A stretch of DNA of 64,000 bases from Promethearchaeota archaeon. Lineage in GTDB: Archaea; Asgardarchaeota; Lokiarchaeia; Sigyniarchaeales; SOKP01. Positions within the stretch are counted from its first letter, which is position 1. Each line of letters starts with the position of its first letter. Shown here piece after piece: positions 1-17,758 of the stretch. The notes beneath the pieces are model-generated. The model did not search any database. It saw only the letters and a program-made list of their open reading frames with translations, and was not told where the DNA came from. The stretch spans positions 64,001 through 128,000 of the forward strand of contig JALGVJ010000003.1 of the NCBI GenBank assembly GCA_029838195.1. Direction: 5' to 3'. Made by a program: the position numbers and the translations under genes.

Positions 1-361
1 CTATTTCTAGAATAGTTCCCGCCCACTGATTACTTTTTGGATGAGTGGCTTTCTTAATGGTGTATGATGGAACTAAGGTAATATTTATACCTTTGATTTC
101 CTTTTTTTCTCCAAGTTTTAATCCCATGCCGTTAAATTTTTTTAAATCTCTCGAAATGCTTTCAGGCCCTATAACAACCGTGTCATCCTTCATTAATTTC
201 TTAATATCGTTTTTAGAAAAGTGGTCAAAATGATTATGAGAGGTAATGATGATGTCTGCTTTTTCTTCTCCATCTTTAATTTGATAGGGATCTAAATATA
301 GAAGGAGACCTGAATTAGTAACGATTTTAAAAGCAGCATGTCCCAACCAACTAATTTCCAC
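1..361 (-). CDS. MBL-fold metallo-hydrolase (5' part; runs off the window start)
   Basis: Not in the ORF track; manual translation gives VEISWLGHAAFKIVTNSGLLLYLDPY...ADIIITSHNHFDHF, with the HxHxDH motif. GTG start at 361 with a GGTGA SD-like site upstream. Confidence 0.85.
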   Translation of the reverse strand, partial: MEISWLGHAAFKIVTNSGLLLYLDPYQIKDGEEKADIIITSHNHFDHFSKNDIKKLMKDDTVVIGPESISRDLKKFNGMGLKLGEKKEIKGINITLVPSYTIKKATHPKSNQWAGTILEI

Positions 362-465: not shown

Positions 466-2241
466 TCATTCTGATTGCTTATCTATCAGTTTTCGTCGCA
501 AATTAATAGCTTCATCATATTCCGGATCCAATTCTAAAGCTCGATTGATGATTTCCAACGCATTAGATAAGCGCCCCATATCAAAAAACAACAATGAGAG
601 GTCATGCCACGTTCGGGGATTTTTAGGGTTAAACTCTATAGATTTTTTCAAGTATTCTTTTGCTTTTTCAAGTTCTCCTTTCCCGTGATGCGCGCGTCCA
701 AAAATATTCCACGTTTCATCATCTTTTGGATTAAGTTTAAGTGAATTTTTACAAGCCTCAATTGCTTTATCAAATAATTTTTTATCGATATAGAGATTGC
801 TAAGGGATTTCCAAGCTTCCAATAATGTGTCATCTAGTTCTAAAGCCTTTTGGAAAGAGGCAAGTGCCTCATCAAGATGCCCCAATTTTTTACTTGCTTT
901 TCCTAAATACATCCAGGCTTCCACGTTCTCGGGCATTAGTTTAACGGCTTCTCGAAAAGCCTTCAATGCATCCTCGATCTTACCTTGCTTAAAGCATAAC
1001 ATTCCTAATTTATGCCACGCTGGAGCTGCATCCGGATTCAAGACTAAAAATTTGTTATAAATTTCTATTGCCTGATCAACTTCATTTAATTCCTCATGAA
1101 TCGATGCAATCGCCTCCAAACCTTCTAAAAATTCCGGATTGATTTCTAAAGCTCTTTGATAAGCGTTTAATGCTTGTTCCAATTCTTGTTTTTCCCGATA
1201 TATCCTAGCTATATTGGTCCATCCTTCAAAATATTCCGGATCCAATTTAACCGCAATCATGCTTGCCTCAAGTGCTTTTTCGAATTGATTTATTTTTATA
1301 TATAATTTTGCTAAATGTTTCCATGACTCAACCAAGGTTTTCTCTATTTTCGTTGCTTCAAGAAATGCTTTAATCGCTTTATCTACATCTCCTAACTTTT
1401 CTTGTAGCCTGCCTATTCGCACCCACCCTTCAGTAAAATAAGGGTTAAGTTGTACGGTTTTTTCATATATTTCTAAAGCTTTCTTGAGGTCGCCGCCCTT
1501 TTCATATAATTTTGCAAGCTCTTCAAGTGCTTTCACGTGCCCCTCGTCTATTTCCAAAATTTGATGAAATACCTTGATCGCTTTTTCTTGCTCGTTTAGT
1601 TCTTCGCAAACTAGGCCTAAATTAAACCAAGCATCTAAATAATAATGGTCAATTTTAATTGCTTTTTTTAGAGCCACTTTTGCTTGTTCATGATTGTTCA
1701 TGCTCCGGTAAGCTAAACCAAGATTATACCACGCATCCACTGAGTTTTCATTGGTGCTCACGGCTTCTTTAAAAGCTTCAATTGCTTTAGAAAAATCTTC
1801 CATTTTTTGATAGGTCTGACCAATTTTAATCCAAATCCACGTGGAGGAAGGTTCTAATTCAAGGATTTTAAGATAAGTATCTAATGCGTCCTTGAAGCGA
1901 GATGTTTTTAAAAACGCATCTCCCATCTTTTCTAAAGCTTCCATGGAATTGGGTTTTATTTTTAAAGCTTCCTTATAACTCTCAATTGCGTGTTCATAAT
2001 CTTCTTTATTAAATAAATAATTAGCTTTATCATAAATCAATTTGAAGCGGAGATAATTCGCCCGATTTCGGTATTCTTTCACTTTTTCTTTCGCTTTTTC
2101 AAGCAAAGAAGGATCTTGAGAATTATTAATCACTTTTAAAATTTTATCAACCGCACTCATGTATTTTGCAATAGCGAGTTTATATTCTCCCTTGGTATCA
2201 TGGGAGAGGGCTTGTTTAGCCTCTTCTAAAGCAATTTTCAT
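466..2241 (-). CDS. N-terminal MIT domain fused to about 15 TPR repeats
   Basis: aa1-68 (AKQALSHDTKGEYKLAIAKYMSAV...VKEYRNRANYLR) align by eye to the Vps4 MIT domain in this window. The rest is 34-aa TPR repeats (AWYNLG...A...ALELDP). Confidence 0.85.
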   Translation of the reverse strand: MKIALEEAKQALSHDTKGEYKLAIAKYMSAVDKILKVINNSQDPSLLEKAKEKVKEYRNRANYLRFKLIYDKANYLFNKEDYEHAIESYKEALKIKPNSMEALEKMGDAFLKTSRFKDALDTYLKILELEPSSTWIWIKIGQTYQKMEDFSKAIEAFKEAVSTNENSVDAWYNLGLAYRSMNNHEQAKVALKKAIKIDHYYLDAWFNLGLVCEELNEQEKAIKVFHQILEIDEGHVKALEELAKLYEKGGDLKKALEIYEKTVQLNPYFTEGWVRIGRLQEKLGDVDKAIKAFLEATKIEKTLVESWKHLAKLYIKINQFEKALEASMIAVKLDPEYFEGWTNIARIYREKQELEQALNAYQRALEINPEFLEGLEAIASIHEELNEVDQAIEIYNKFLVLNPDAAPAWHKLGMLCFKQGKIEDALKAFREAVKLMPENVEAWMYLGKASKKLGHLDEALASFQKALELDDTLLEAWKSLSNLYIDKKLFDKAIEACKNSLKLNPKDDETWNIFGRAHHGKGELEKAKEYLKKSIEFNPKNPRTWHDLSLLFFDMGRLSNALEIINRALELDPEYDEAINLRRKLIDKQSE

Positions 2242-2496
2242 GAGATTTAAGAGACCACTCGTGATATCTTCCCCTTTATGATTTTTAACTATTTTCTTTA
2301 TACTCTATTAATTTACCCAAAACCAATTAAAGATATAAATGCATTTAATTCTTTCACGCTTTTATAAAAAACATGAAAAATGGTATTTAACTTTAAATTA
2401 GTCCAATTTTTTCAAAAATCGTTATTTCTTGGCATTCTACTACAAGTTTTAAGATAAAAGAAAATAATAAAATACAAAAGTTTTGTAAATAAAACT

Positions 2497-3831
2497 TCAT
2501 ATTTTATATTGATCTTTAAGGAAATTGAGAATGTATTTTTTTACTTTTTGTCGATTTGGCAAGCTGGCAATCATGCCATACATGGCAGCTTCACCTTTAT
2601 CAACCTTCTCGGGATTCTCTTTCACCTCTCTGACAGCATCTTTTAAATCTTTCAGAAATTTGTCAGCAATTTTAGAATGATGCGGATTCACGATCATGTG
2701 AAGAGCTGGGGGATATTGCAATCTATCGAGATGCCATCCTTTTGAATCCAAGAAATCGCCTAATTGAAAAATATTAAACTCATCAGAAGTAAACGAAAAA
2801 ACGCTCATTACAGGTTCTCCTAAGATATAGAGAGAATCCATGGCATTAATCTCGTTGATTATTTTTTTTGATGTATTCATGACTTCCTCTGCTAATTTTA
2901 AATATTTCTCTTTTCCAAGAGCTTTAATGCCTGCCCAAGCAGCGGCAATGGGCCCTCCCGCTCTCGTCCCTCGCATGGTTGGAGCAATATACACGCCTCC
3001 AGACCAGTCTGCATACACGTATAATTGGTGTTTCCAAATTTTTTCAGTGCGATAAATGATAGTAGAAGTCCCTTTCGGTCCATAACCATATTTATGAATA
3101 TCAGCAGAAATGGACGTCACGCCTGGTACAGAAAAATCAAACTCGGGAACGGGATATCCTAATTCTTTAACAAAAGGAAGCATGAAGCCTCCAAGACAAG
3201 CATCAACGTGCATGCCAATTCCACGCTCTTGTGCAAGAGCAGCTATTTCTGAAATGGGATCTACGACTCCTCGGGGATAATCGCACGCAGATGCTATCAA
3301 GAGAATCGTATTTTCTGAGATCGCTTTTTTCATGGCTTTTACATCAGCACGATGAGTTTTTTCGTCAACGGGAACTCTTATCGATTTGACTTTGAAATAT
3401 TCTGCACTTTTTTCAAAAGCAGGATGAGCGGAGCTAGGCATTACCATTTCTGGATTCTTAATGTGAGGGAATTTCTTTTCCGCCCATTCACGATATGTTA
3501 AAACTGCCGTCATGATTGATTCAGTCCCGCCAGAAGTCATGCTTCCACAACATTTTTTATCGCCATTAAGAAGATCTGCAACCATGGAAACTACTTCCGT
3601 TTCGAATTTCCTTAAACTCGGAAATGCTAACGGACTAAGTGCATTCTTAGAGAAAAACTTATCATGAGCTTTTTTCAAAAATGTGGCATGCTCCTCCGTA
3701 GCGTGATATACCAAACTCCAGAGTTTGCCTTCTTCCCATTTTACATCTTCACTTGCGATGGAATCCATCTCTTCCAAGATTTTTTCATGAGGAAGCCCTT
3801 TTTCAGGCATTTGAATTGTGGGTCTTACCAT
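2497..3831 (-). CDS. PLP-dependent lyase/decarboxylase, sphingosine-1-phosphate lyase-like
   Basis: Motifs TSGGTES, HVDACLGGF, SISADIHKYG (PLP lysine) and WSGGVYIAPTMRGTRAGG. Confidence 0.85.
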   Translation of the reverse strand: MVRPTIQMPEKGLPHEKILEEMDSIASEDVKWEEGKLWSLVYHATEEHATFLKKAHDKFFSKNALSPLAFPSLRKFETEVVSMVADLLNGDKKCCGSMTSGGTESIMTAVLTYREWAEKKFPHIKNPEMVMPSSAHPAFEKSAEYFKVKSIRVPVDEKTHRADVKAMKKAISENTILLIASACDYPRGVVDPISEIAALAQERGIGMHVDACLGGFMLPFVKELGYPVPEFDFSVPGVTSISADIHKYGYGPKGTSTIIYRTEKIWKHQLYVYADWSGGVYIAPTMRGTRAGGPIAAAWAGIKALGKEKYLKLAEEVMNTSKKIINEINAMDSLYILGEPVMSVFSFTSDEFNIFQLGDFLDSKGWHLDRLQYPPALHMIVNPHHSKIADKFLKDLKDAVREVKENPEKVDKGEAAMYGMIASLPNRQKVKKYILNFLKDQYKI

Positions 3832-4215: not shown

Positions 4216-4596
4216 TTAATTCTTTCTTTCTTCCTCCTCATCAAGATGAAGTTCCGGCTTGAGAAGCGTGATCTTATTTAACATGCCGTGGATATCCGAT
4301 TTAGAAATATCAATTTCAGATAACCGTTCTTCAAACATTTTATTTCGATATTGTGGTATCTTTATTAGTAAATTTGGGGTATTTAAAAGATCAAAAGGAA
4401 AAGGGTTTAGATTCTGAACACGTAATGAAATCCCGTTGTTAAACGAGTTTCTTTTTTTAGGGGTTCTTATAATGAGAGGAAGATTTAATTCTAAATCCTT
4501 ATATAATCTTTCCTTCGCCTGTTTTGGAAAAGAATGGGTTAATATTCTGCACGTGGGGCAATCTTCCTCAAATCCATGAATGCACGGCATGAGCAT
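4216..4596 (-). CDS. hypothetical protein with N-terminal CxH-x5-CxxC motif
   Basis: 126-aa ORF in an otherwise AT-rich gap; begins MPCIHGFEEDCPTC. Confidence 0.6.
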   Translation of the reverse strand: MLMPCIHGFEEDCPTCRILTHSFPKQAKERLYKDLELNLPLIIRTPKKRNSFNNGISLRVQNLNPFPFDLLNTPNLLIKIPQYRNKMFEERLSEIDISKSDIHGMLNKITLLKPELHLDEEEERKN

Positions 4597-6477: not shown

Positions 6478-8028
6478 TTAATTTTCAAGTAAAGTTGATT
6501 CATCCATGTGCTCCCTTGCAAATCTCAATCTATCCTGAATTATTTCCTTTCTAGTGATAATATCATTACATTTCTGACGCCATTCCACTAAACGACGTTT
6601 TAAATCATTCAATATCATTTCATAATGATTATTTCCAATAAGATTATTCATTTCAAAAGGATCTTCCTTTAAATCATATAACTCGTCCTTGTCCTTATCA
6701 TTAAAAATGTATTTATATCGTTCTGTAACGAGCATCCTCCCAATATTAATCGTAAAATGTCCATTCGATTCACACATTAAATCTTCTCTCCAAGTATTCA
6801 TATCATCAGTGAACATGGATAATAGGCTCTGCCCATGAACATTATGTGGAAATGAAGAACCCGTTGCATCTAAAATAGTTAGAGGAATATCTAAGTTACT
6901 CACGAGAAGATCTGATTTTTTTCCTGCCGGAATGACGCCTGGAAACCGTAATCCCAGTGGAATGCGCACCATCTCCTCGGGCATGTAAGCATCCTTATCA
7001 AAATGACCTCCATGACATCCTACTGCATCTCCATGATCTGCCGCTAAAATAATTAACGTGTTTTTTTCAAAACCCAGCTTATCCAAGGTATCTATTATTA
7101 ATCCCGCTGCTTCATCTATCAATGTTTGTTGGGCATAATTTAATGCTAAAATTTTTTGCCATTCTGACCAAGGTAAAGGATTTGGAAATATTATTTTACC
7201 ATTCTTGTTCAATGGATAATTTCTCTCAAATTTATAAAGTCTAGGTTTATTTTTTAAGTCATCTCTAAAACTTGGATGCTCAGGTATTTTTTCTGGGGGA
7301 TAAAGGTTTAAATATTCCTGGGTTGCATAATAAGGTTGGTGAGGTCCCCAAAAATCTACCCGCAAGTGAAAGGGTTCTTGGTTGCCTCGTTCTGCAATCT
7401 CTATCAATTTCTCACATGCTAAATGTGCTAAAAAAAAGGCTTCATGCGTTTCTTTAGGACTTGTCATTATTCCGATTGTGTCTTCATTACTAGCAGCACG
7501 ATTAAGGAAATGAGGCTCACCCTTTAATATTTTAGCTTGTAATTCTTTTCCTAATTTCGAGGAGGGCGGTACGAAACTTCTCTGAAGTTTCAATTGAAAA
7601 TCGGGCAAATTGTTCTTTTTTAAATAGTCCTTATATTCGGGTTTCGTATATGGATTATTATAATCAGGATAACTAAAGCCTTCACAATGGTGATCGTGAG
7701 CCGTGCCATCGCCCGCATGCCATTTACCATAATAATAATTATGATATCCTTCCTCTGCTAATATATCTAAATACGTCTTAAATTTAAAAGGAACAAAGGA
7801 AAAATTAGAAAGAACACCGTGCGTGTGAGGAAAAACTCCCGTCAACATGGAACGCCGAGCGGGAGCACATAGTGGGCAACAAGTATATGCTCGAAGAAAT
7901 TCAACGCCTTGTGATACCAGTTTTTCGAACGTAGGTCTCTGAATTTTCGGACCACCCACGCTTTCTCCATGACCATAAAATGCTTGATGATCATTTAATA
8001 AAAACACGATATTAGGTTTTTCTGTCAT
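6478..8028 (-). CDS. formylglycine-dependent sulfatase (Cys-type)
   Basis: PNIVFLLNDH, CAPARRSMLTG (CxPxR), GKWH, GPHQPY, ADHGD and ELYDLKEDPFEMNNL. Confidence 0.93.
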   Translation of the reverse strand: MTEKPNIVFLLNDHQAFYGHGESVGGPKIQRPTFEKLVSQGVEFLRAYTCCPLCAPARRSMLTGVFPHTHGVLSNFSFVPFKFKTYLDILAEEGYHNYYYGKWHAGDGTAHDHHCEGFSYPDYNNPYTKPEYKDYLKKNNLPDFQLKLQRSFVPPSSKLGKELQAKILKGEPHFLNRAASNEDTIGIMTSPKETHEAFFLAHLACEKLIEIAERGNQEPFHLRVDFWGPHQPYYATQEYLNLYPPEKIPEHPSFRDDLKNKPRLYKFERNYPLNKNGKIIFPNPLPWSEWQKILALNYAQQTLIDEAAGLIIDTLDKLGFEKNTLIILAADHGDAVGCHGGHFDKDAYMPEEMVRIPLGLRFPGVIPAGKKSDLLVSNLDIPLTILDATGSSFPHNVHGQSLLSMFTDDMNTWREDLMCESNGHFTINIGRMLVTERYKYIFNDKDKDELYDLKEDPFEMNNLIGNNHYEMILNDLKRRLVEWRQKCNDIITRKEIIQDRLRFAREHMDESTLLEN

Positions 8029-8192
8029 AATTTCTTAAACCCATTAAACATAAAATATCTTTTGAAACCGTTAAGGGAAATTAATTTATTTTTATAAGTA
8101 AGGTAAGGTAAAAAAAAAAGTAAAGTAAGAATAATTTAATAGTTTACTTTATTGTTCTCCAAGATTTTCTCTAAAGATAAACATTAACATTT

Positions 8193-9476
8193 CTACTTAG
8201 ATTCAACGGTTTCCTTATACTTGAAATCTTTCGCTATTATAACGGGTATTAAAGCCAATAGAATAAAGATCGCCCCAACAAAATATATTAAGGGAGGTGG
8301 AACAGTTCCCTCTACTCCTTCTATCACGATGGGCTTCCCATATTGCATGGAAATTATTCCTCCTATAAGAGGGCCAAAAATCATTCCAATTAGAACCTCA
8401 AAGATCAAACAATATCCGCTAAATTGACCATACTTTTCGGGAGGATATAAATCCTTGATCCACGTTTGAACGGAAATGCGCCATGAAGTCATGAAAAGTA
8501 CCCATAGAACGCCCGTAATTATCAAGAAAATAAGATCCCTTGCTAAAGCATATAAACATAAGAATATGGCTTGGCAAATAAGAGAAAGAATGGCTATTTT
8601 TTTCCTTCCAAATTTATCGGTTAAGATGCCTATAGGAACACCCAAAATGATTGAAACCAATATGGCAATAGAAACCACTAATGCAGCTATTTCAAGAGGT
8701 AATCCCACGTGATGCTGGAGATAAATCAACACGAAAGGAAAATATACGTTAAAACCCACTGCGAATACTCCCATTCCAATTAGAAGTATGAAATAATTCT
8801 TGTTATTTCTCAGCATCTCTTTATTGAACGAGCTCTTAATATGTTGAAATACGCTAACTTGTAATGGTTTGAGATCTTCAGAATCTGTAGCTAAATAGAC
8901 ACCGGGCAGCCCCAACACTCCCGTGACAATTCCGGCGAGAATGAAAAAGAGGTAATATCCAACAGCTGACACGATAAATCCAGTAATAGCGTAAATAATC
9001 ATAAAAGATATGAGAGTCGTGACTTCCATAATACTTACGGCTTTTCCCCGATTTTCTAACGTGGTAACATCCGTGACGTAAGCAGTAAAGGCAGCATCAT
9101 ATGCAGTTGCCCCAAAATATGTCATGATACAATCAAAAATAATTGCCATGGCCACTGCAAGAATCACAGGTTTAAAAAAAGCAGCAAACGGAAATATGGC
9201 TGTGGTGAAGATCCAACCAATATATCCAAATATCATGAAAGCTCTTCTCTTTCCTCGCACATCGGAGATCGCACCCATTACGATAGCAGTAATCGTGGAC
9301 ATTACGGCTGAAATAGAGACCATTAGTGAAACATAAATGGGCACGGGAGCAATTTCATTATATAAAAAGACATTAAAAAATTGATTTTCTATGGCCCAAG
9401 CGATATTTCCTCCTAATGAAATTAAAAGAATGATGATAGCAGTTCTCTTTTCTAATTTAATTTTATTAGTACTCAT
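8193..9476 (-). CDS. MFS transporter
   Basis: About 12 hydrophobic segments; motif A copies GAISDVRGKRR and GILTDKFGRKK. Confidence 0.9.
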   Translation of the reverse strand: MSTNKIKLEKRTAIIILLISLGGNIAWAIENQFFNVFLYNEIAPVPIYVSLMVSISAVMSTITAIVMGAISDVRGKRRAFMIFGYIGWIFTTAIFPFAAFFKPVILAVAMAIIFDCIMTYFGATAYDAAFTAYVTDVTTLENRGKAVSIMEVTTLISFMIIYAITGFIVSAVGYYLFFILAGIVTGVLGLPGVYLATDSEDLKPLQVSVFQHIKSSFNKEMLRNNKNYFILLIGMGVFAVGFNVYFPFVLIYLQHHVGLPLEIAALVVSIAILVSIILGVPIGILTDKFGRKKIAILSLICQAIFLCLYALARDLIFLIITGVLWVLFMTSWRISVQTWIKDLYPPEKYGQFSGYCLIFEVLIGMIFGPLIGGIISMQYGKPIVIEGVEGTVPPPLIYFVGAIFILLALIPVIIAKDFKYKETVESK

Positions 9477-9739
9477 GCTATATCCACCTTATTGTTAAAG
9501 TTAAATTTCTAAATCTTTAATTTAATTAATAGTTGCATTTTTAAATTATTAAAAAGACTTGAATCAAAGACTATTTGTTTATCTTTCCCATGAACATTTT
9601 TTTTAAAATGTTTAAAATATATAATTAATTACACAATATACATTTTTTAATTGGAAGATTTTTCTCATGGCTCATTTTTGAATGGAATCAAGTAGAAATG
9701 AGTCAATATTTACAATTAACATCATAAAGGGGAAAAAGA

Positions 9740-11149
9740 TTGGAAAATGATAACTTGAAAATTGATAATTTCGAGATTACTCATTCAAAATTACACATGG
9801 TATCATATGGATTTGGAGCTACCATCAATCAATTTTTTCAAATGGCCTTCTCTGCTCTGGGATTTTATTTTTATGAAGTAGAAATAGGATTAAATGTTTG
9901 GCTTACCAGTTTGGGGTATATAATCTTTGCAATATGGAATGCCATCAATGATCCTCTTAGTGGGTACCTAACAGACCGTCCATTTAAATTTACTCAAAAA
10001 TGGGGTCGCAGATTTCCTTGGATGCTCATCGGAGGCATTCCTTGGCTCTTTAGCTATATTTTAATTTTTTTCCCTCCTGATGTGGATCCTGATTCTGGAG
10101 CATTAATTCTTTTCATTTGGCTAGTTTTTACTACTTGCCTATTTGACACGTTCAATTCTTTATGGTGGGTAAATTTTTATTCATTATATCCCGACAAATT
10201 TCGCAGTGCGAGAGAAAGAAGAATTGCTGCGGGTATCATCACTCCCGTTGGCATTTTAGGCGTCGCTTTAGGAGGCATTATCCCTCCCTTGCTGATATCA
10301 TATGGTTCTAAGCAAACTTTTTTATATCAAGCGTTTGTTGTTGTAATGTTTAATGTAGTTTTTTTTTGTTTAGCCATTCCCGGCTGGAGAGATGATAAAG
10401 TAAATGTTGAGCGTTATTTAAAAAAATATAGAGAAAGTCAAAAAAATCAATCATTCGTGGAAGCCATAAAACTGTCCTTGAAACATAAAAACTTTAGAGT
10501 CTATATTATATTGAATATATTTTTTAGTGCCATGGGATTTTGTATACAAGCTTCAATTCCCTATGTCGTACGCTACGTGCTAGGCGCCAGTTCTAGTTCT
10601 CAAATAATTCTTCAAATAGCATTTCTCACTGGTTCTTTGGTATCAACTCCCCTTTGGATAAAATTTGCGAATAAAGTGAATAATAATCGAAAGGTTTTGA
10701 TTTTTTCGACTGTAATGATGATTATTTTTACCTTTCCCCTTTCATTTTTTACTGGTTTAATTTCTCTTTTCATTACCTTATTTTTATGGGGGTTTGCCTA
10801 TGGAGGGATGTGGAGTCTCATGCGCGCGTGCATTGCAGATGTTATTAATGAATCTATCGTGATTTCTGGAAAACGACAAGAAGGAGTCTATAATGGGATA
10901 ATGCAATTTTTTAGTCGTTTTGCTTTAATTCTTCAAGCTCTTACTTTTGCGATTATACATGGTCTTACGAATTTTGATGAAGAGGCGCCTATTCAATCCT
11001 CTGAGGCAATATGGGGTATCCAGCTTCATTTTGGCATCATTCCCATGATTTACATGATTATTGGAATTGCAGTATTTTGGAAATGGTATACACTTACTCC
11101 TTCTAAATTAAATTATTGTGAAATTAAAATAAGGGAAATGGGGCTCTAA
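9740..11149 (+). CDS. MFS transporter, glycoside-pentoside-hexuronide (MelB-like) family
   Basis: WNAINDPLSGYLTDR...KWGRRFPW and ADVINE...GKRQEGVY motifs; TTG start. Confidence 0.9.
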   Translation: MENDNLKIDNFEITHSKLHMVSYGFGATINQFFQMAFSALGFYFYEVEIGLNVWLTSLGYIIFAIWNAINDPLSGYLTDRPFKFTQKWGRRFPWMLIGGIPWLFSYILIFFPPDVDPDSGALILFIWLVFTTCLFDTFNSLWWVNFYSLYPDKFRSARERRIAAGIITPVGILGVALGGIIPPLLISYGSKQTFLYQAFVVVMFNVVFFCLAIPGWRDDKVNVERYLKKYRESQKNQSFVEAIKLSLKHKNFRVYIILNIFFSAMGFCIQASIPYVVRYVLGASSSSQIILQIAFLTGSLVSTPLWIKFANKVNNNRKVLIFSTVMMIIFTFPLSFFTGLISLFITLFLWGFAYGGMWSLMRACIADVINESIVISGKRQEGVYNGIMQFFSRFALILQALTFAIIHGLTNFDEEAPIQSSEAIWGIQLHFGIIPMIYMIIGIAVFWKWYTLTPSKLNYCEIKIREMGL

Positions 11150-13927: not shown

Positions 13928-14644
13928 ATGGGCTTAAAAAAAATTGATGATGAAATTGATTTCAAAGAAGCCATGCGAAAAAAAGCTGCTGAGTTAAAAA
14001 TAAAAGAGATTCAATCCAAAGCTAGAGTGGAAAATTTAACAAAAGAGCGGCTGGCTGAACTTGCTAAAAAGCATGGAGTCCTTCTTGCTCTTACCCCAGA
14101 ATTGAAGGAGGAGGTTAAATATCTACAAGAAAAATATAATATTCCTTCTTCAAGAATTATTACGGAACAACTTAAAGAAGAAGATGTCATTGGACGGTTT
14201 TCTCGCATTGATCATGAAAAATTAGGAATGCTGGCCTATCAGAGAGTTTTATTGCGGAAAGAAGAAATAGGAGTTGGCCTCATTCCCATATCAGAAGTTT
14301 ATGATTTGGTGAATACTGGCCCTCTAAAAGGGATCTTAGACATCAAGGATGTGATTAAAGCAATGAATACCTTAAAAAAGAATAAAGTAATCGAAGACGT
14401 GAAAAAATTGGAATCAGGAGTAATCATGGTGCAATTCTTTCCAATTCAATACACGAGCGATGAAGTCAAGGTAATAGAATTAGCAAGAGAAAAAGGTTAT
14501 TTATCTTTAGAAGAGGTATGTTCAACTTTAAACTGGTCGCAAGATAGGGCTTTACGGACGCTTCAATCATTGGAAAATAGTGGACTTGCGAAATTCAGAG
14601 ACCACATTATAAAAGGAAAACAATGGTATTTTCCCTCTATTTAG
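13928..14644 (+). CDS. ESCRT-II Vps22/Vps36-like (EAP30) protein
   Basis: The C-terminal winged helix VIELAREKGYLSLEEVCSTLNWSQDRALRTLQSLENSGLA...WYFP matches the Vps22/SNF8 pattern; lies in the ESCRT cluster. Confidence 0.88.
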   Translation: MGLKKIDDEIDFKEAMRKKAAELKIKEIQSKARVENLTKERLAELAKKHGVLLALTPELKEEVKYLQEKYNIPSSRIITEQLKEEDVIGRFSRIDHEKLGMLAYQRVLLRKEEIGVGLIPISEVYDLVNTGPLKGILDIKDVIKAMNTLKKNKVIEDVKKLESGVIMVQFFPIQYTSDEVKVIELAREKGYLSLEEVCSTLNWSQDRALRTLQSLENSGLAKFRDHIIKGKQWYFPSI

Positions 14645-14665: not shown

Positions 14666-15553
14666 TTAATCAATTTCTATTTTTAAAGCTTGACGGCCAC
14701 TCGCAAGCTTGATAATTACTGCTTTCTTGTTTTTTGCCAGCATTTTAAAGATTTCATTGATATCTTCTTGGGGAAGCGTGCTAAACTCCTTATTGGCTTC
14801 TCGAATTTCATGAATTAAAATGGGTTCTAGCTTTCCAAGTTCCAGCGCCCAATCGTAGATCTCCTCTGCCCAAGAATCGAGACTCTTCCAATATATTCGA
14901 ACTTTATCTCTCTTTTTAGAAAGCCATTTTGCAAGATCCTGGTCAATTAACTCTTCAATAATCTCATCAATCGCTTGCTTTCTATTTTGAAATTTGGAAA
15001 ATGGTTTTTCAGCATAAAGCTGTTTCAAATATAAAATATGAAGAACTGCGTATCTTGAATAATCAAATAATACCTTTGCCCATTCTTCTCGCCATGACTG
15101 ATAATCATTGGGATTTTTCTTCTTGTTTGGAATGGAGTACATGAATTCATATCTCGGCTCTTCCAACCACGGATAATCTCTTTTTAAAAACTCATAGGGT
15201 TCTAATTCTTTTTCTATTAACCCGGTCTCTCCAATAATTTCTTTTTCTAATGCATTTAACTCAGATTCCACGAAATCCGTATGCGGTTCATAAGTCTTTT
15301 GATCCTCCAGAACTAACTGCCCGCTTAACACGTTTTCAATTTTCTTTAAACGCCCCTCAATTTCTTCATAGCCCCCTGAGCTGCTCTCTTTCGGAGAAAT
15401 TTCATCTCGAGACTCCTGTTGCTTTAATAATTCTTTTTGCCTTTTAAGGGCTTTCAAGCGAGCAAGTTCTTCCCGCAATCGAGCAATTTCATTCTCAGTT
15501 TTTTCCCTTAAATCTTTAGAAATTACCTTAATTTGTTTTTTTTGCCTTTCCAT
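14666..15553 (-). CDS. ESCRT-II Vps25-like protein with N-terminal coiled coil
   Basis: WREEWAKVLFDYSR and IYWKSLDSWAEEIYDWA match the Vps25 WH1/WH2 pattern; directly downstream of vps4. Confidence 0.88.
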   Translation of the reverse strand: MERQKKQIKVISKDLREKTENEIARLREELARLKALKRQKELLKQQESRDEISPKESSSGGYEEIEGRLKKIENVLSGQLVLEDQKTYEPHTDFVESELNALEKEIIGETGLIEKELEPYEFLKRDYPWLEEPRYEFMYSIPNKKKNPNDYQSWREEWAKVLFDYSRYAVLHILYLKQLYAEKPFSKFQNRKQAIDEIIEELIDQDLAKWLSKKRDKVRIYWKSLDSWAEEIYDWALELGKLEPILIHEIREANKEFSTLPQEDINEIFKMLAKNKKAVIIKLASGRQALKIEID

Positions 15554-15593: not shown

Positions 15594-16811
15594 TTATTGC
15601 TCGCCAAACTCTTCAGCCCATTTTTCATATTCTTCTAAATCCTTCTTGGTGGTCATGGGCTTTACTTTTTTCATGGTGTTCAAGAAATCTTCTAAAACTA
15701 AATCCCTTACCTTAATTTCCTTACTCGAATCTTCTAAAAGCCCTTTCATGTCTAATTCTCGAATGGGAATCATTATTACTTCTCTACACACGTTTGAAAT
15801 ATCTCGTCCGCTGTATCCCTCTGATCTGACGGCTAATTCTATAAAATCATCGTCAGTTAACGCCATGTTAACGCCAGCCGTATGAATTCTAAAAATAGCG
15901 GCTCTGGCTTCTAAATCAGGAAGAGGAACGTATACTTTTTTCTGAAATCTACTTAGCATGGCATTATCTATATCCCATGGACGATTAGTGGCCCCTAATG
16001 TCAACAACACTTTCTCCGCAGTCGATTTTACTCCTTGAATTTCACTAAGTAATTGGGTTTTTACCCTCCTCTCTCCCCCACTTTCGGATCCCGTACCTCT
16101 CTTGGTCGCAATAGAGTCAATCTCATCAATAAAAATCAAGCTAGGGGCTTTGATTTTCGCCACTCTAAATAGGGCACTTATTAATTTCTCACTCTCTCCT
16201 AACCACTTGCTTAATAAATCTGCAGATGACACGCTGAAAAAGGTCGCTTTACATTCCGTTGCTGCGGCTTTTGCTAACAGTGTTTTTCCACAACCGGGAG
16301 GACCAAATAATAAAATACCGGACCATGGCTTTCTTGCACCGATAAATAATTCTGGTCGGATGATGGGCAATACGATGGCTTCTCGCAAATTTTGCTTCAC
16401 GTTTTCTAACCCCGCAATATCATTCCATCGGACGTTGGGTGATTCAGTGAGAATCGTACCAGAAATCATGTTAATGATTTCTTGCTGTTCCTCTGAATAC
16501 ATGCCCTCATCCGTAGCTAATTTATCATCTTCCGCCTTACCGGAAGCCGCCGCCGTACCGGAATGCCTGGCTTTCGGACCACTCAGTTTCATTTTAATCT
16601 GCTTGGCACGTTCCAAGTATTCTTGTATAGTAGCCTCACAACGCTTTCTCATGATGGGATTCTTATTATATTTGGTGAATTCTATGAGGATCTCGGCAGC
16701 ACGGAAATATTTATTCATTGCTTCCCTATACTGTCCTTTTGCATCCAAAGCCACCGCTGCATTTGCCTCCTGCTTGGCATATAACAACAATCTAGAGTCA
16801 GAACTGCTCAT
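15594..16811 (-). CDS. vps4: Vps4 AAA+ ATPase
   Basis: MIT domain, PNVRWNDIAG, GPPGCGKT, SKWLGESEK pore loop, FIDEID, GATNRPWDID and C-terminal YEKWAEEFG. Confidence 0.96.
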   Translation of the reverse strand: MSSSDSRLLLYAKQEANAAVALDAKGQYREAMNKYFRAAEILIEFTKYNKNPIMRKRCEATIQEYLERAKQIKMKLSGPKARHSGTAAASGKAEDDKLATDEGMYSEEQQEIINMISGTILTESPNVRWNDIAGLENVKQNLREAIVLPIIRPELFIGARKPWSGILLFGPPGCGKTLLAKAAATECKATFFSVSSADLLSKWLGESEKLISALFRVAKIKAPSLIFIDEIDSIATKRGTGSESGGERRVKTQLLSEIQGVKSTAEKVLLTLGATNRPWDIDNAMLSRFQKKVYVPLPDLEARAAIFRIHTAGVNMALTDDDFIELAVRSEGYSGRDISNVCREVIMIPIRELDMKGLLEDSSKEIKVRDLVLEDFLNTMKKVKPMTTKKDLEEYEKWAEEFGEQ

Positions 16812-17117: not shown

Positions 17118-17123
17118 GGTGAT
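17118..17123 (+). promoter_or_regulatory. Shine-Dalgarno-like GGTGAT upstream of the proposed ATA start
   Basis: GGTGAT ends 5 nt before ATA 17129. Confidence 0.6.
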
Positions 17124-17128
17124 GAGAT

Positions 17129-17758
17129 ATAGGATTTTTAAAAGATTTAAGCAATTGGCTCTCTGGAGGTAGAGGAAAAACCGATTCCGTCCGTTCCGCC
17201 GCCATCAAGTTAAAAGTGTTCAACAAGCGATTGGCTCGGCAAGCAAAAAAACTCGAAATGAGCGCAAAACTTGCAAGAGATAAAGCCGTCCGATTACGGC
17301 GAGAAGGAGATCTAGAAGGCTCTAAATTCCATGCCCGTAATTACCTGCAAGTCAAAAAACAGGCCAGAGCCATTGAAGTATTTAGAACTAACCTCGAAGG
17401 ACTTCAATTCAAGCTAGAACAAGCAAACGCCATTAGTGATGTCTCCCAAATCATGGGGGGTATCGCCCAATCCTTAGCTCGATTAAAAGCAAGCTTATCT
17501 CTCCCTCAACTCACGGAAATCATGAAAAATGTCCAGGTGGACATGGAAGATTTTGCGATCACTACTGATATCGCTAGTGAAGGCATGGACGAGATTACTT
17601 TGGACACGGCAGTTACGGATAGTGATGTGGACGAGGTTTTGGGTGAAATTGATGCGGAAATCGGCGTGGAAATGGGAACTGCCCTTCCAACAGTAAAAGG
17701 CGATGAAAAGATAGCTGATTTGGAAAAAGAATTAAACCGCTTGAAGTCAAGAGATTAG
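17129..17758 (+). CDS. ESCRT-III (Vps2/24/46-like); probable ATA start at 17129 (ORF track starts at GTG 17216)
   Basis: Snf7-fold charge pattern (basic N-half, acidic C-half) and a MIM1-like end (ADLEKELNRLK). The frame is open back to ATA 17129, which follows GGTGAT. Confidence 0.9.
   Translation: MGFLKDLSNWLSGGRGKTDSVRSAAIKLKVFNKRLARQAKKLEMSAKLARDKAVRLRREGDLEGSKFHARNYLQVKKQARAIEVFRTNLEGLQFKLEQANAISDVSQIMGGIAQSLARLKASLSLPQLTEIMKNVQVDMEDFAITTDIASEGMDEITLDTAVTDSDVDEVLGEIDAEIGVEMGTALPTVKGDEKIADLEKELNRLKSRD

Follow-up and report, generated by a model that had tools for sequence, protein, structure and literature searches.

The window, a stretch of 64,000 nucleotides, carries at its beginning a reverse-strand gene, MIT-TPR, whose product joins an N-terminal MIT domain to a long array of TPRs, and further on a cluster of ESCRT-II, Vps4 and ESCRT-III genes (Table 1). 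The reading frame upstream of the first ATG remains open in the sequence, and the true start is probably an ATC eight codons 5' of that ATG, because the same-genus orthologue has an ATG at the aligned position and a GGGG lies 6-9 nt upstream. The ESCRT-III gene of the cluster (ESCRT-IIIA) probably starts at an ATA; the resulting N-terminal extension is conserved and orthologues begin M-G-F-L. The best solved relatives of ESCRT-IIIA are CHMP1B (5e-10) and CHMP2A, placing it in the Vps2/24/46 class, while the second ESCRT-III of the genome (ESCRT-IIIB) matches PDB 9fn1_U at 4e-88, versus 2e-7 for the Heimdall AB_125 protein.

Table 1. Genes and features of the MIT-TPR and ESCRT region (window positions; aa, amino acids).
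Feature	Position	Strand	Details and basis
MBL-fold hydrolase, downstream neighbour of MIT-TPR	2..361	-	
MIT-TPR gene	466..2265	-	591 aa from ATG 2241 (ORF 466-2241); probably 599 aa from ATC 2265
Some 15 TPRs in tandem, with a conserved helix at the C-terminal end	487..2040	-	TPR_1/TPR_2/TPR_8 matches; orthologue conservation
Continuous helix, MIT helix 3 and helix A of TPR 1	2008..2112	-	DSSP on both models
MIT domain, three helices (model residues 2-24, 28-48, 52 to about 75)	2041..2265	-	Pfam MIT and AF2 model
Candidate non-AUG start (ATC) with purine-rich GGGG box upstream	2263..2274	-	Read directly in the sequence
Small 126-aa protein with N-terminal Cys cluster, without Pfam family	4216..4596	-	Neighbour upstream of MIT-TPR
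EAP30/Vps22-36-like (ESCRT-II)	13928-14644	+	Pfam
Vps25-like (ESCRT-II)	14666-15553	-	Pfam
Vps4 (MIT-AAA-Vps4_C)	15594-16811	-	Pfam; the genome's one further MIT gene
ESCRT-IIIA, Snf7-family, CHMP1B/CHMP2A-like	17129..17758 (Snf7 ORF 17216-17758)	+	Pfam Snf7; probable start ATA 17129
Putative MIM1-like C-terminal helix of ESCRT-IIIA, DEKIADLEKELNRLKSRD	17702..17755	+	K, I, L, E, L, R, L, K invariant in six orthologues

Most of the MIT-TPR protein consists of repeats. From about residue 68 on, each of the Pfam families TPR_1, TPR_2 and TPR_8 finds 15 repeats, which are canonical tandem 34-residue helix-turn-helix units, as in the TPR domain of O-GlcNAc transferase, APC/C subunits and CTPR arrays; unlike ordinary long TPR scaffolds, however, the N-terminal 70 residues are MIT. 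A single MIT stretch lies above threshold and is followed by TPR families only, an arrangement distinct from the tandem MIT and VSL of Vta1/LIP5. The Pfam scan of the 591-residue protein found neither an enzyme domain nor a PLD domain, and none of the AAA, AAA_lid and Vps4_C families that are all present in the local Vps4. An earlier, sequence-only reading of this DNA, which had counted about 15 TPRs without an enzyme domain, is borne out by these results. The C-terminal end is also conserved among orthologues.

That reading had further likened the N-terminus to the MIT domain of the local Vps4, to be checked with the Pfam MIT profile, and had set against itself the outcome of an ordinary TPR cap with no MIT match. 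When residues 1-75 were scanned alone, Pfam MIT (PF04212, curated cut-off 30 bits) paired residues 4-65 with positions 4-65 of its 66-position profile at 51.8 bits (E = 8.5e-14), more than the local Vps4 itself reaches (40-44 bits), and TPR models gave no match to the same residues even at E<=10. Across the whole 4.5-Mb genome, a six-frame scan with PF04212 returned only MIT-TPR (50.9 bits) and Vps4 (43.6 bits) above the cut-off, the remaining matches lying inside TPR-rich frames at 19-26 bits. The MIT-TPR N-terminus used as a query retrieved the local Vps4 MIT (E = 2.4e-6, 29% identity), and its identity to the Vps4 MITs of the same family is 29-40%. In a MAFFT alignment with 20 Vps4 MIT domains, both sequence pairings cited by the earlier reading are in register, and the helix-3 residues K, E and R of the MIT signature are kept. 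The likeness to Vps4 MIT is thereby confirmed, and a plain TPR cap does not describe this segment: the MIT profile and the predicted fold both match it and no TPR model does.

The fold comes from an AF2 model of the N-terminal part of the protein from the ATC start (pLDDT 95.5), in which an asymmetric three-helix bundle is predicted to superpose on solved MITs. Model residues 1-75 superpose on eight MIT domains of solved structure, including those of calpain-7, CdvC, MITD1, Vps4, spastin and spartin, with VIA-align Z of 11.3-13.8 and rmsd of 0.9-2.4 Å, bearing in mind that helical repeats readily yield high Z. The fits include calpain-7 (8uc6_B; Z 13.8, 0.9 Å over 75 residues), Sulfolobus CdvC (2w2u_B; Z 13.5, 1.2 Å over 74 residues), MITD1 (4a5x_B; Z 11.9, 1.3 Å over 73 residues) and yeast Vps4 (2v6x_A; Z 11.9, 2.4 Å over 80 residues). 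With the Vps4/CdvC group as a whole (yeast 2v6x, human VPS4A 2jq9, Sulfolobus 2w2u; Z 11.3-13.5), MIT-TPR thus shares the Pfam family and the predicted bundle, and calpain-7 MIT2 and MITD1 are among the best structural fits. TPR fits with low rmsd are restricted to model residues 71-150 (idealised TPR 1na3_B: Z 13.9, 1.4 Å), and fits of the whole model to TPR arrays have an rmsd of 6-9 Å; in a shape search of the ESM Atlas, some bacterial TPR proteins fit 132 model residues at 3.2 Å. Foldseek against the PDB with the 150-residue model returned TPR arrays only, at rmsd 7-12 Å, and no MIT, the MIT fits emerging with VIA-align, and the ESM Atlas, searched by features and by shape, gave TPR clusters plus one eukaryotic Vps4 cluster, with no cluster of at least 50 members combining MIT and TPR. 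Profile score and predicted fold together mark the N-terminus of MIT-TPR as a genuine MIT domain.

This model replaces a first one (ATG start, 5 sequences) in which helix 1, at a pLDDT of 48-61, ran on into helix 2 without a bend; the two differ in start and in depth of alignment, so the gain is not attributable to the ATC alone. Across the junction with the TPRs, DSSP assigns a single helix in both (H44-78 in the first, H52-86 in the second, whose numbering is shifted by +8), and in Pfam terms MIT ends at residue 65 and the first TPR match begins at residue 68. In the models MIT helix 3 continues straight into the first TPR helix without a flexible linker, which makes the predicted junction rigid.

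The earlier reading placed the gene 12 kb from the ESCRT locus, and the gap to the first ESCRT gene is indeed about 11.7 kb. The intervening genes encode an NTP-transferase, a sulfatase, MFS transporters, a CYTH protein, RsmB and NIP7. In four genomes from two genera, MIT-TPR shares a contig with ESCRT-II, Vps4 and ESCRT-III and lies 6-12 kb from them; this synteny is absent in two other genomes (G064 and G005), and most of the family has the same synteny block without MIT-TPR. The closeness is inherited block synteny through unrelated housekeeping genes, not an operon. The small Cys-cluster protein is encoded directly upstream of MIT-TPR in five of six relatives, with one ORF between them in the sixth (G013), and in relatives without MIT-TPR the MBL-fold hydrolase gene comes directly after it. 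As a specific partner this protein was rejected: it is family-wide, present also where MIT-TPR is missing, and serves as a site marker.

The range of the gene is narrow. Within one Asgard family, which probably belongs to Lokiarchaeia, about 9 of some 135 genomes, from few genera, yielded an orthologue, and the 265 other Asgard genomes yielded none; to speak of an "Asgard scaffold", as had been done from the sequence, is therefore too broad. Most genomes of the family lack MIT-TPR, which is therefore dispensable for ESCRT function. Where present, it tends to keep its MIT domain: eight orthologues from five genera score above the cut-off (39.5-53.6 bits for seven isolated N-termini, 67.3 bits for the whole protein of G005), and the syntenic orthologue in genus g3 has a decayed MIT of 19.6 bits. 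Mean column identity across genera is 63% in the MIT part and 61% in the TPR part, and the MIT part is conserved at least as well as the TPRs. An exhaustive profile search with the family's MIT through 1.84 billion representatives gave 255 matches and no full-length MIT-TPR; only three short metagenomic fragments (156, 88 and 84 aa) are clear family members, the rest being eukaryotic tandem-MIT proteins, Vps4 fragments and many TPR proteins that match helix 2 only. A word-indexed protein search with residues 1-110 found two TPR proteins, through the TPR part, and no MIT relatives, and a scan of genome contigs found two MIT-TPR family members and otherwise plain TPR proteins.

Two groove positions bear on how the MIT domain might bind ESCRT-III. 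In yeast Vps4, Leu64 lies in the H2/H3 groove and L64D disrupts both MIM1 binding and Vps4 function, while Ile18 is a hydrophobic residue of the H1/H3 groove used in the MIM2 mode (PMC3987140). In the alignment the Leu64-equivalent of MIT-TPR is Arg58 and not the hydrophobic residue of Type 1 (MIM1) binders; across 11 members of the MIT-TPR family the position reads R, K, R, T, R, R, I, V, L, L and L, compared with L/I/V/M in 19 of 20 Vps4 MITs of the same phylum. The Ile18-equivalent is Leu12, hydrophobic as in Type 2 (MIM2) binding, and is L/I/F in 10 of the 11 members (Thr in G005). Because the Leu64-equivalent is Arg, a mode other than the classical Type 1 appears as likely as Type 1 for the candidate interaction. 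On the partner's side, the C-terminal helix of ESCRT-IIIA is amphipathic, with the pattern K-I-x-[DE]-L-E-x-E-L-[ND]-R-L-K, and reads like a MIM1 when judged against the consensus discussed in PMC7240154; a profile of the tail had no significant match among PDB sequences. Complex prediction with MIT-TPR residues 1-210 (5-row alignment) and the C-terminal 60 residues of ESCRT-IIIA (6-row alignment) scored 0.00 in both runs, the partner's fold being uncertain, so that this score speaks neither for binding nor against it. More generally, ESCRT-III tails are the ligands of most human MIT domains, which recognise them in at least seven modes and recruit cofactors, although those of ULK1/2 apparently do not, so that not all MITs bind (PMC9477494).

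Taken together, we lean with modest confidence towards MIT-TPR being an ATPase-free ESCRT-III cofactor, which would dock on ESCRT-III tails through its MIT domain and hold a TPR scaffold on the filament. The three-helix bundle would dock on the C-terminal tail that ESCRT-III exposes when polymerised, most likely that of the CHMP1B/Vps2-like ESCRT-IIIA encoded 15 kb away. Because one continuous helix would weld the MIT domain to the TPR solenoid of about 520 residues, the solenoid would sit on the filament in a fixed orientation, where it could bind or organise other proteins. We infer ESCRT-III binding by the MIT domain, the tail and groove it would use and the cargo of the TPRs alike; the proximity to ESCRT genes in four genomes lends weak support. 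MIT-TPR differs from Vps4/CdvC, with which it shares the helix-3 K/E/R and the Ile18-equivalent, in lacking an AAA ATPase and a flexible linker, in its Arg at the Leu64-equivalent and in the TPRs that follow. It resembles eukaryotic proteins that carry MIT on a non-Vps4 body, such as MITD1 (MIT and PLD-like), Vta1/LIP5 (tandem MIT and VSL), calpain-7, spartin, AMSH and USP8 (PMC9477494), although its junction is rigid in the model and there is no sign of common descent of the fusion. More than 20 eukaryotic MIT proteins read ESCRT-III tails, bringing enzymes and adaptors to sites of abscission, to endosomes and to sites of repair (PMC9477494).

Alternatively, MIT-TPR might be a general TPR scaffold unrelated to ESCRT, in which a captured Vps4-type MIT now acts as a structural cap or binds a non-ESCRT helix, its nearness to ESCRT being inherited. 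We find this rather unlikely, but several observations speak for it: one helix spans MIT and TPR 1 without a linker, the Leu64-equivalent is not conserved, the g3 orthologue has a decayed MIT, and the synteny runs through unrelated genes, persists without MIT-TPR and fails in G005 and G064. The MIT and TPR folds are also alike, so that the MIT domain could be nothing more than the solenoid's N-terminal end, and with no linker one of its faces may be occupied by the TPR array. However, a plain cap need not remain recognisable as MIT, while here a MIT of 39-67 bits, above many true Vps4 MITs, is kept in eight genomes of five genera; its conservation equals that of the TPRs, and both the helix-3 K/E/R and a hydrophobic residue at the Ile18-equivalent are retained. 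Another possibility, which we judge improbable, is that MIT-TPR is a brake on Vps4: its MIT would occupy ESCRT-IIIA tails while the rigid TPR bulk shields filaments from disassembly, stabilising them rather than recruiting other proteins. A MIT of the same domain class as that of Vps4 would compete for the same tails, the modelled junction is rigid and the body large, and the genome has just two MIT genes; yet the altered Leu64-equivalent speaks against competition at the classical MIM1 site, and fifteen well-kept TPRs suggest bound ligands. Finally, that a TPR-like helix pair matches the MIT profile by chance or through its composition, as might be thought from the many TPR proteins that match positions 15-49 of the family's MIT profile, is extremely improbable and, at the level of sequence and model, refuted by full-profile coverage at 51.8 bits without any TPR model match, a same-genome background of at most 26 bits, eight orthologues above the cut-off and a model that superposes on solved MITs at 0.9-1.3 Å.

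Returning to the cofactor reading, MIT-TPR is not the only MIT fusion in Asgards. Other lineages have MIT-PLD (PLDc_2; L077), MIT-NucS_C nuclease (L080), MIT-MIT-SHOCT-zinc ribbon (L074) and MIT-Pro-rich-unknown (L078) proteins, none of which were found in the family of MIT-TPR. Like MIT-TPR they have an N-terminal MIT above the Pfam cut-off, lack AAA and occur in genomes that also have a normal Vps4; unlike it, they have other partner domains and a linker between domains. Such fusions would be the pattern expected of a portable targeting module, and because a conserved MIT-TPR stands beside MIT-PLD, MIT-nuclease and MIT-zinc-ribbon proteins, the comparison suggests that MIT as a portable ESCRT-III address label may be older than eukaryotes. 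To our knowledge the archaeal MIT domain has been discussed solely as part of Vps4/CdvC, and none of MITD1, Vta1/LIP5, calpain-7, spartin, AMSH and USP8 joins MIT to a TPR array. Our literature search found no paper describing MIT-TPR or such Asgard MIT fusions, and a 2024 ESCRT survey, in the portion of its text available, does not report any accessory ESCRT-domain family for some Asgard classes, nor any MIT fusion (PMC10936438).

The architecture of MIT-TPR is genuine and new, and the protein would belong to a familiar class of ESCRT-III cofactors, within the limits set by a small family (few genera of one family), its dispensability and an inferred function. A wider proposal, possible but in our view doubtful, is that Asgards already ran a combinatorial MIT-MIM cofactor code, with MIT joined to TPR, PLD, PD-(D/E)xK nuclease or zinc ribbon depending on lineage. 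MIT-TPR would be its rigid-scaffold member, using a non-classical groove on ESCRT-IIIA to place clients at membrane-remodelling sites; if true, Asgards had a code of a kind thought to be a eukaryotic elaboration. The TPR body would in any case offer a handle for identifying what Asgard ESCRT-III filaments recruit. As to where this genome occurs, with no RNA run among those listed, the sequencing runs that contain its DNA are hydrothermal-vent metagenomes from three studies.

MIT-TPR begins with a true MIT domain, and the fusion is more than a chance match. The Pfam MIT model covers residues 4-65 (profile positions 4-65/66) and, from about residue 68 on, TPR_1, TPR_2 and TPR_8 match 15 stretches each, with no catalytic family in the scan of the whole protein; the sequence-only reading, which had counted about 15 TPRs and no enzyme domain, was right. 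The helix-hairpin fold common to MIT and TPR makes cross-hits between them a real risk. Scanned in isolation, the first 75 residues score 51.8 bits for MIT (E 8.5e-14; curated cut-off 30) and return no TPR model even at E<=10; the local Vps4 scores 40.0 bits with the same MIT model. In a six-frame PF04212 scan of the whole 4.5-Mb assembly, MIT-TPR (50.9 bits) and Vps4 (43.6 bits) alone rise above the cut-off, and 11 other places, in TPR-rich frames, lie at 19-26 bits. Orthologue N-termini in isolation (n=7) score 39.5-53.6 bits, an eighth (genome G005) 67.3 bits as a whole protein. When aligned by MAFFT with 20 Vps4 MIT domains, MIT-TPR keeps the register of both hand alignments to the local Vps4 MIT, on which the domain was originally proposed.

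The protein probably starts upstream of the annotated ATG codon of the 591-codon reading. The frame is open there, with an ATC 8 codons up (2265-2263) preceded at 6-9 nt by GGGG; a same-genus orthologue has ATG at the aligned position, and all orthologues have N-termini 6-8 residues longer than the ATG-start reading. A first AlphaFold2 model (aa 1-210, ATG start, 5 sequences) gave confident TPRs and a helix 1 at pLDDT 48-61, and a second, built from the longer, ATC-start form (150 residues, 12 sequences), reached pLDDT 95.5, with helices at 2-24, 28-48 and 52-86 and regular TPR hairpins after them. Compared with 48,161 PDB representatives by VIA-align, the second model divides into two modules, residues 1-75 (MIT) and 71-150 (TPR). 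The former fits the MITs of calpain-7 (MIT2, 8uc6_B; Z 13.8, 0.9 Å over 75), Sulfolobus CdvC (2w2u_B; Z 13.5, 1.2 Å over 74) and MITD1 (4a5x_B; Z 11.9, 1.3 Å over 73), as well as those of VPS4A, VPS4B, spastin and spartin, and yeast Vps4 fits the N-terminal module (2v6x_A; Z 11.9, 2.4 Å over 80). The latter fits an idealised TPR (1na3_B; Z 13.9, 1.4 Å over 80), and forcing the whole model onto TPR arrays gives rmsd of 6-9 Å. The N-terminus is thus no ordinary TPR cap devoid of an MIT hit. High Z is nevertheless common among helical repeats, and some bacterial TPR proteins in the ESM Atlas fit 132 residues of the model at 3.2 Å, so that the fold alone is not decisive for MIT and the profile score decides.

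The junction, on which the sequence-only reading had not remarked, sets MIT-TPR apart from Vps4. In Vps4 the MIT is followed by a flexible linker of about 40 residues, and the local Vps4 has a Gly/Ser/Ala-rich stretch there, whereas MIT-TPR has none: the Pfam MIT runs to residue 65, the first TPR match starts at 68, and both AlphaFold2 models run MIT helix 3 on into helix A of TPR 1 as a single continuous 35-residue helix. If the models are right, the MIT would sit rigidly at the end of a solenoid of about 520 residues. The best-supported reading, which we hold to be modestly probable, is that MIT-TPR is a putative ATPase-free ESCRT-III cofactor, in which the MIT would act as an address label to ESCRT-III, rigidly joined to a TPR solenoid that would serve as the working body. 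The main rival, in which a scaffold captured the MIT as an end-piece with no ESCRT role, is possible but rather unlikely; that MIT-TPR is a brake on Vps4 seems very doubtful.

The groove residues bear on both the cofactor and the end-piece readings. In yeast Vps4, I18D impairs MIM2 binding, while L64D impairs MIM1 binding and blocks function (PMC3987140). By phmmer alignment to the yeast Vps4 MIT and by the family alignment, Leu12 of MIT-TPR takes the Ile18 position, where 10 of 11 family members have a hydrophobic residue, and Arg58 the Leu64 position, which is L, I, V or M in 19 of 20 Vps4 MITs of the phylum and R, K, R, T, R, R, I, V, L, L, L across the MIT-TPR family; it follows that the branch with the window's protein has not kept the classical Type 1 pocket. 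MIT domains have at least seven tail-binding modes, and a few show no ESCRT-III binding at all (PMC9477494); with so many modes, an altered Leu64-equivalent weakens one of them, not the general idea of ESCRT-III binding. A candidate ligand is at hand. The closest solved chains to the window's Snf7-family gene are CHMP1B (5e-10), CHMP2A and CHMP1A, which places it in the Vps2/24/46 class as ESCRT-IIIA. The C-terminal 18 residues of its product make up a helix almost unchanged over 6 orthologues (K, I, L, E, L, R, L, K fixed), which we read as MIM1-like; such Leu/Ile-rich C-terminal motifs have been reported for Asgard Vps2/24/46 proteins (PMC7240154). The genome's second ESCRT-III, on another contig, aligns along its entire length with 9fn1_U, a 'Vps20/32/60-like protein (ESCRT-III)', at 4.3e-88 and is therefore ESCRT-IIIB; a very close relative of it has a solved structure.

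ESCRT synteny gives weak support to an ESCRT role. In three relatives (G001, G017 and G053) the order is MIT-TPR, small Cys-cluster protein, NTP-transferase, CYTH, RsmB, NIP7, Vps22/36, Vps25, Vps4, ESCRT-IIIA and PfkB kinase (the G001 contig stops at Vps4), as in the window bar its insertions (a PLP-dependent decarboxylase, a sulfatase and two MFS transporters), and MIT-TPR comes as close as 6 kb to ESCRT-II. The ESCRT-linked block is not tied to MIT-TPR. The small Cys-cluster protein is found in 19 of 24 family genomes and, in genera without MIT-TPR, lies 7-17 kb from Vps4 and is directly followed by the MBL-fold hydrolase that in the window comes after MIT-TPR; MIT-TPR thus occupies a place at the margin of a conserved block, flanked by two neighbours older than itself. 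G064 and G005 have MIT-TPR away from ESCRT genes. Besides the main-block pair on contig C42, G053 has a further Vps4 and ESCRT-IIIA pair on a short contig; either the pair is duplicated or the bin (5.0 Mb, 5% contamination) contains a second strain.

The family is narrow. A 216-column MIT+TPR profile, run on 121 genomes of the window's family, has full-length matches of 231-344 bits in the window's genome (G000), G001 (genus g1), G013 (g13), four of ten g6 genomes (G006, G017, G053, G064) and one of five g9 genomes (G055, a contig-end fragment). G005 (g5) has a more distant 425-aa MIT-TPR at another site (MIT 67.3 bits). The two large genera g2 and g11, sampled here with 41 genomes each, had no MIT-TPR match, and neither did 265 genomes from other Asgard families at E<=1e-45. 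The window's genome is treated here as that of a Lokiarchaeia-type Asgard and not of a close sister of eukaryotes; Ca. Heimdallarchaeum aukensis PM71 shares only its phylum and belongs to another class. In G015 (g3) the MIT-TPR site, flanked by the small Cys-cluster protein and the MBL hydrolase, holds a 459-aa TPR protein that aligns end to end with MIT-TPR; its N-terminus, at only 19.6 bits for MIT, is a decaying MIT. Clear members among 1.84 billion representative proteins amount to three short fragments, and near-identical DNA is present in hydrothermal-vent metagenomes from three studies. A 1191-codon frame of G007 (genus g7) matches MIT at 37 bits, limited to profile positions 2-56; this could mean a further large MIT-bearing protein or a strong TPR cross-hit.

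Other Asgard genomes have MIT fusions of their own. A PF04212 scan of 400 genomes across the phylum found mostly one MIT per genome (Vps4), with a second or third in several lineages; five genomes with extra MIT genes were read for domain make-up and yielded, besides extra Vps4 paralogues, five further architectures (table). The genome with the tandem-MIT protein and that of the window share a class. The MIT-PLDc_2 protein, from a closed 3.6-Mb genome of another family, has the domain order of human MITD1, and the MIT-nuclease would, if its MIT is functional, be an ESCRT-III-addressed nuclease. We found no paper linking MITD1 with Asgard or joining MIT domain, Lokiarchaeota and tetratricopeptide, and the text and parts of the supplement of a 2024 ESCRT survey describe no MIT fusions (PMC10936438). 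MIT-TPR is a new architecture among known MIT-domain cofactors, with a putative function and narrow reach; as far as found, such cofactors are so far undescribed in its domain of life.

Positions of MIT-TPR, its relatives and the associated genes (window coordinates unless a locus or contig is named)
Feature	Position	Strand	Remarks
MIT-TPR	466-2241	minus	open frame, 591 codons counted from ATG
PLP-dependent decarboxylase	2497-3831	minus	insertion between small Cys-cluster protein and MIT-TPR
Sulfatase and two MFS transporters	6478-11149		insertion further along the block
Vps4	15594-16811	minus	
Snf7-family gene (ESCRT-IIIA)	17216-17758	+	
Second ESCRT-III, 216 aa	L009:1429-2079 (G000, contig C22)	+	away from main ESCRT locus
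TPR protein at MIT-TPR site	L088:1937-3316 (G015)	minus	
Second Vps4 and ESCRT-IIIA pair	G053:C13:145-2108		
MIT match in 1191-codon frame	G007:C76:6385-6558	minus	
MIT-MIT-SHOCT-zinc ribbon, 253 aa	L074:1465-2226 (G264)	+	tandem MITs 90.4 bits total; SHOCT-like helix; C-terminal zinc ribbon
MIT-PLDc_2, 275 aa	L077:1453-2280 (G253)	+	MIT 35.9 bits, PLDc_2 72.7 bits; H-S-K-x4-D motif
MIT-NucS_C/PD-(D/E)xK nuclease, 228 aa	L080:1036-1722 (G307)	minus	MIT 37.6 bits, nuclease domain 35 bits
MIT, long Pro-rich linker, unassigned C-terminal domain, 264 aa	L078:931-1725	minus	
MIT and unassigned 250-residue tail, 367 aa	L075:1339-2442	+	MIT at residues 55-118

Within 17123-17218, ESCRT-IIIA very likely starts at ATA 17129 and not at GTG 17216: the 29 codons upstream of the GTG are conserved, a TGA stands just before the ATA, at 17123, and five orthologues begin M-G-F-L-x-D-L-S-x-W-L at the ATA position. 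Two ESCRT-related genes of this genome would then have AUH starts, ESCRT-IIIA (ATA, very likely) and MIT-TPR (ATC, a candidate).
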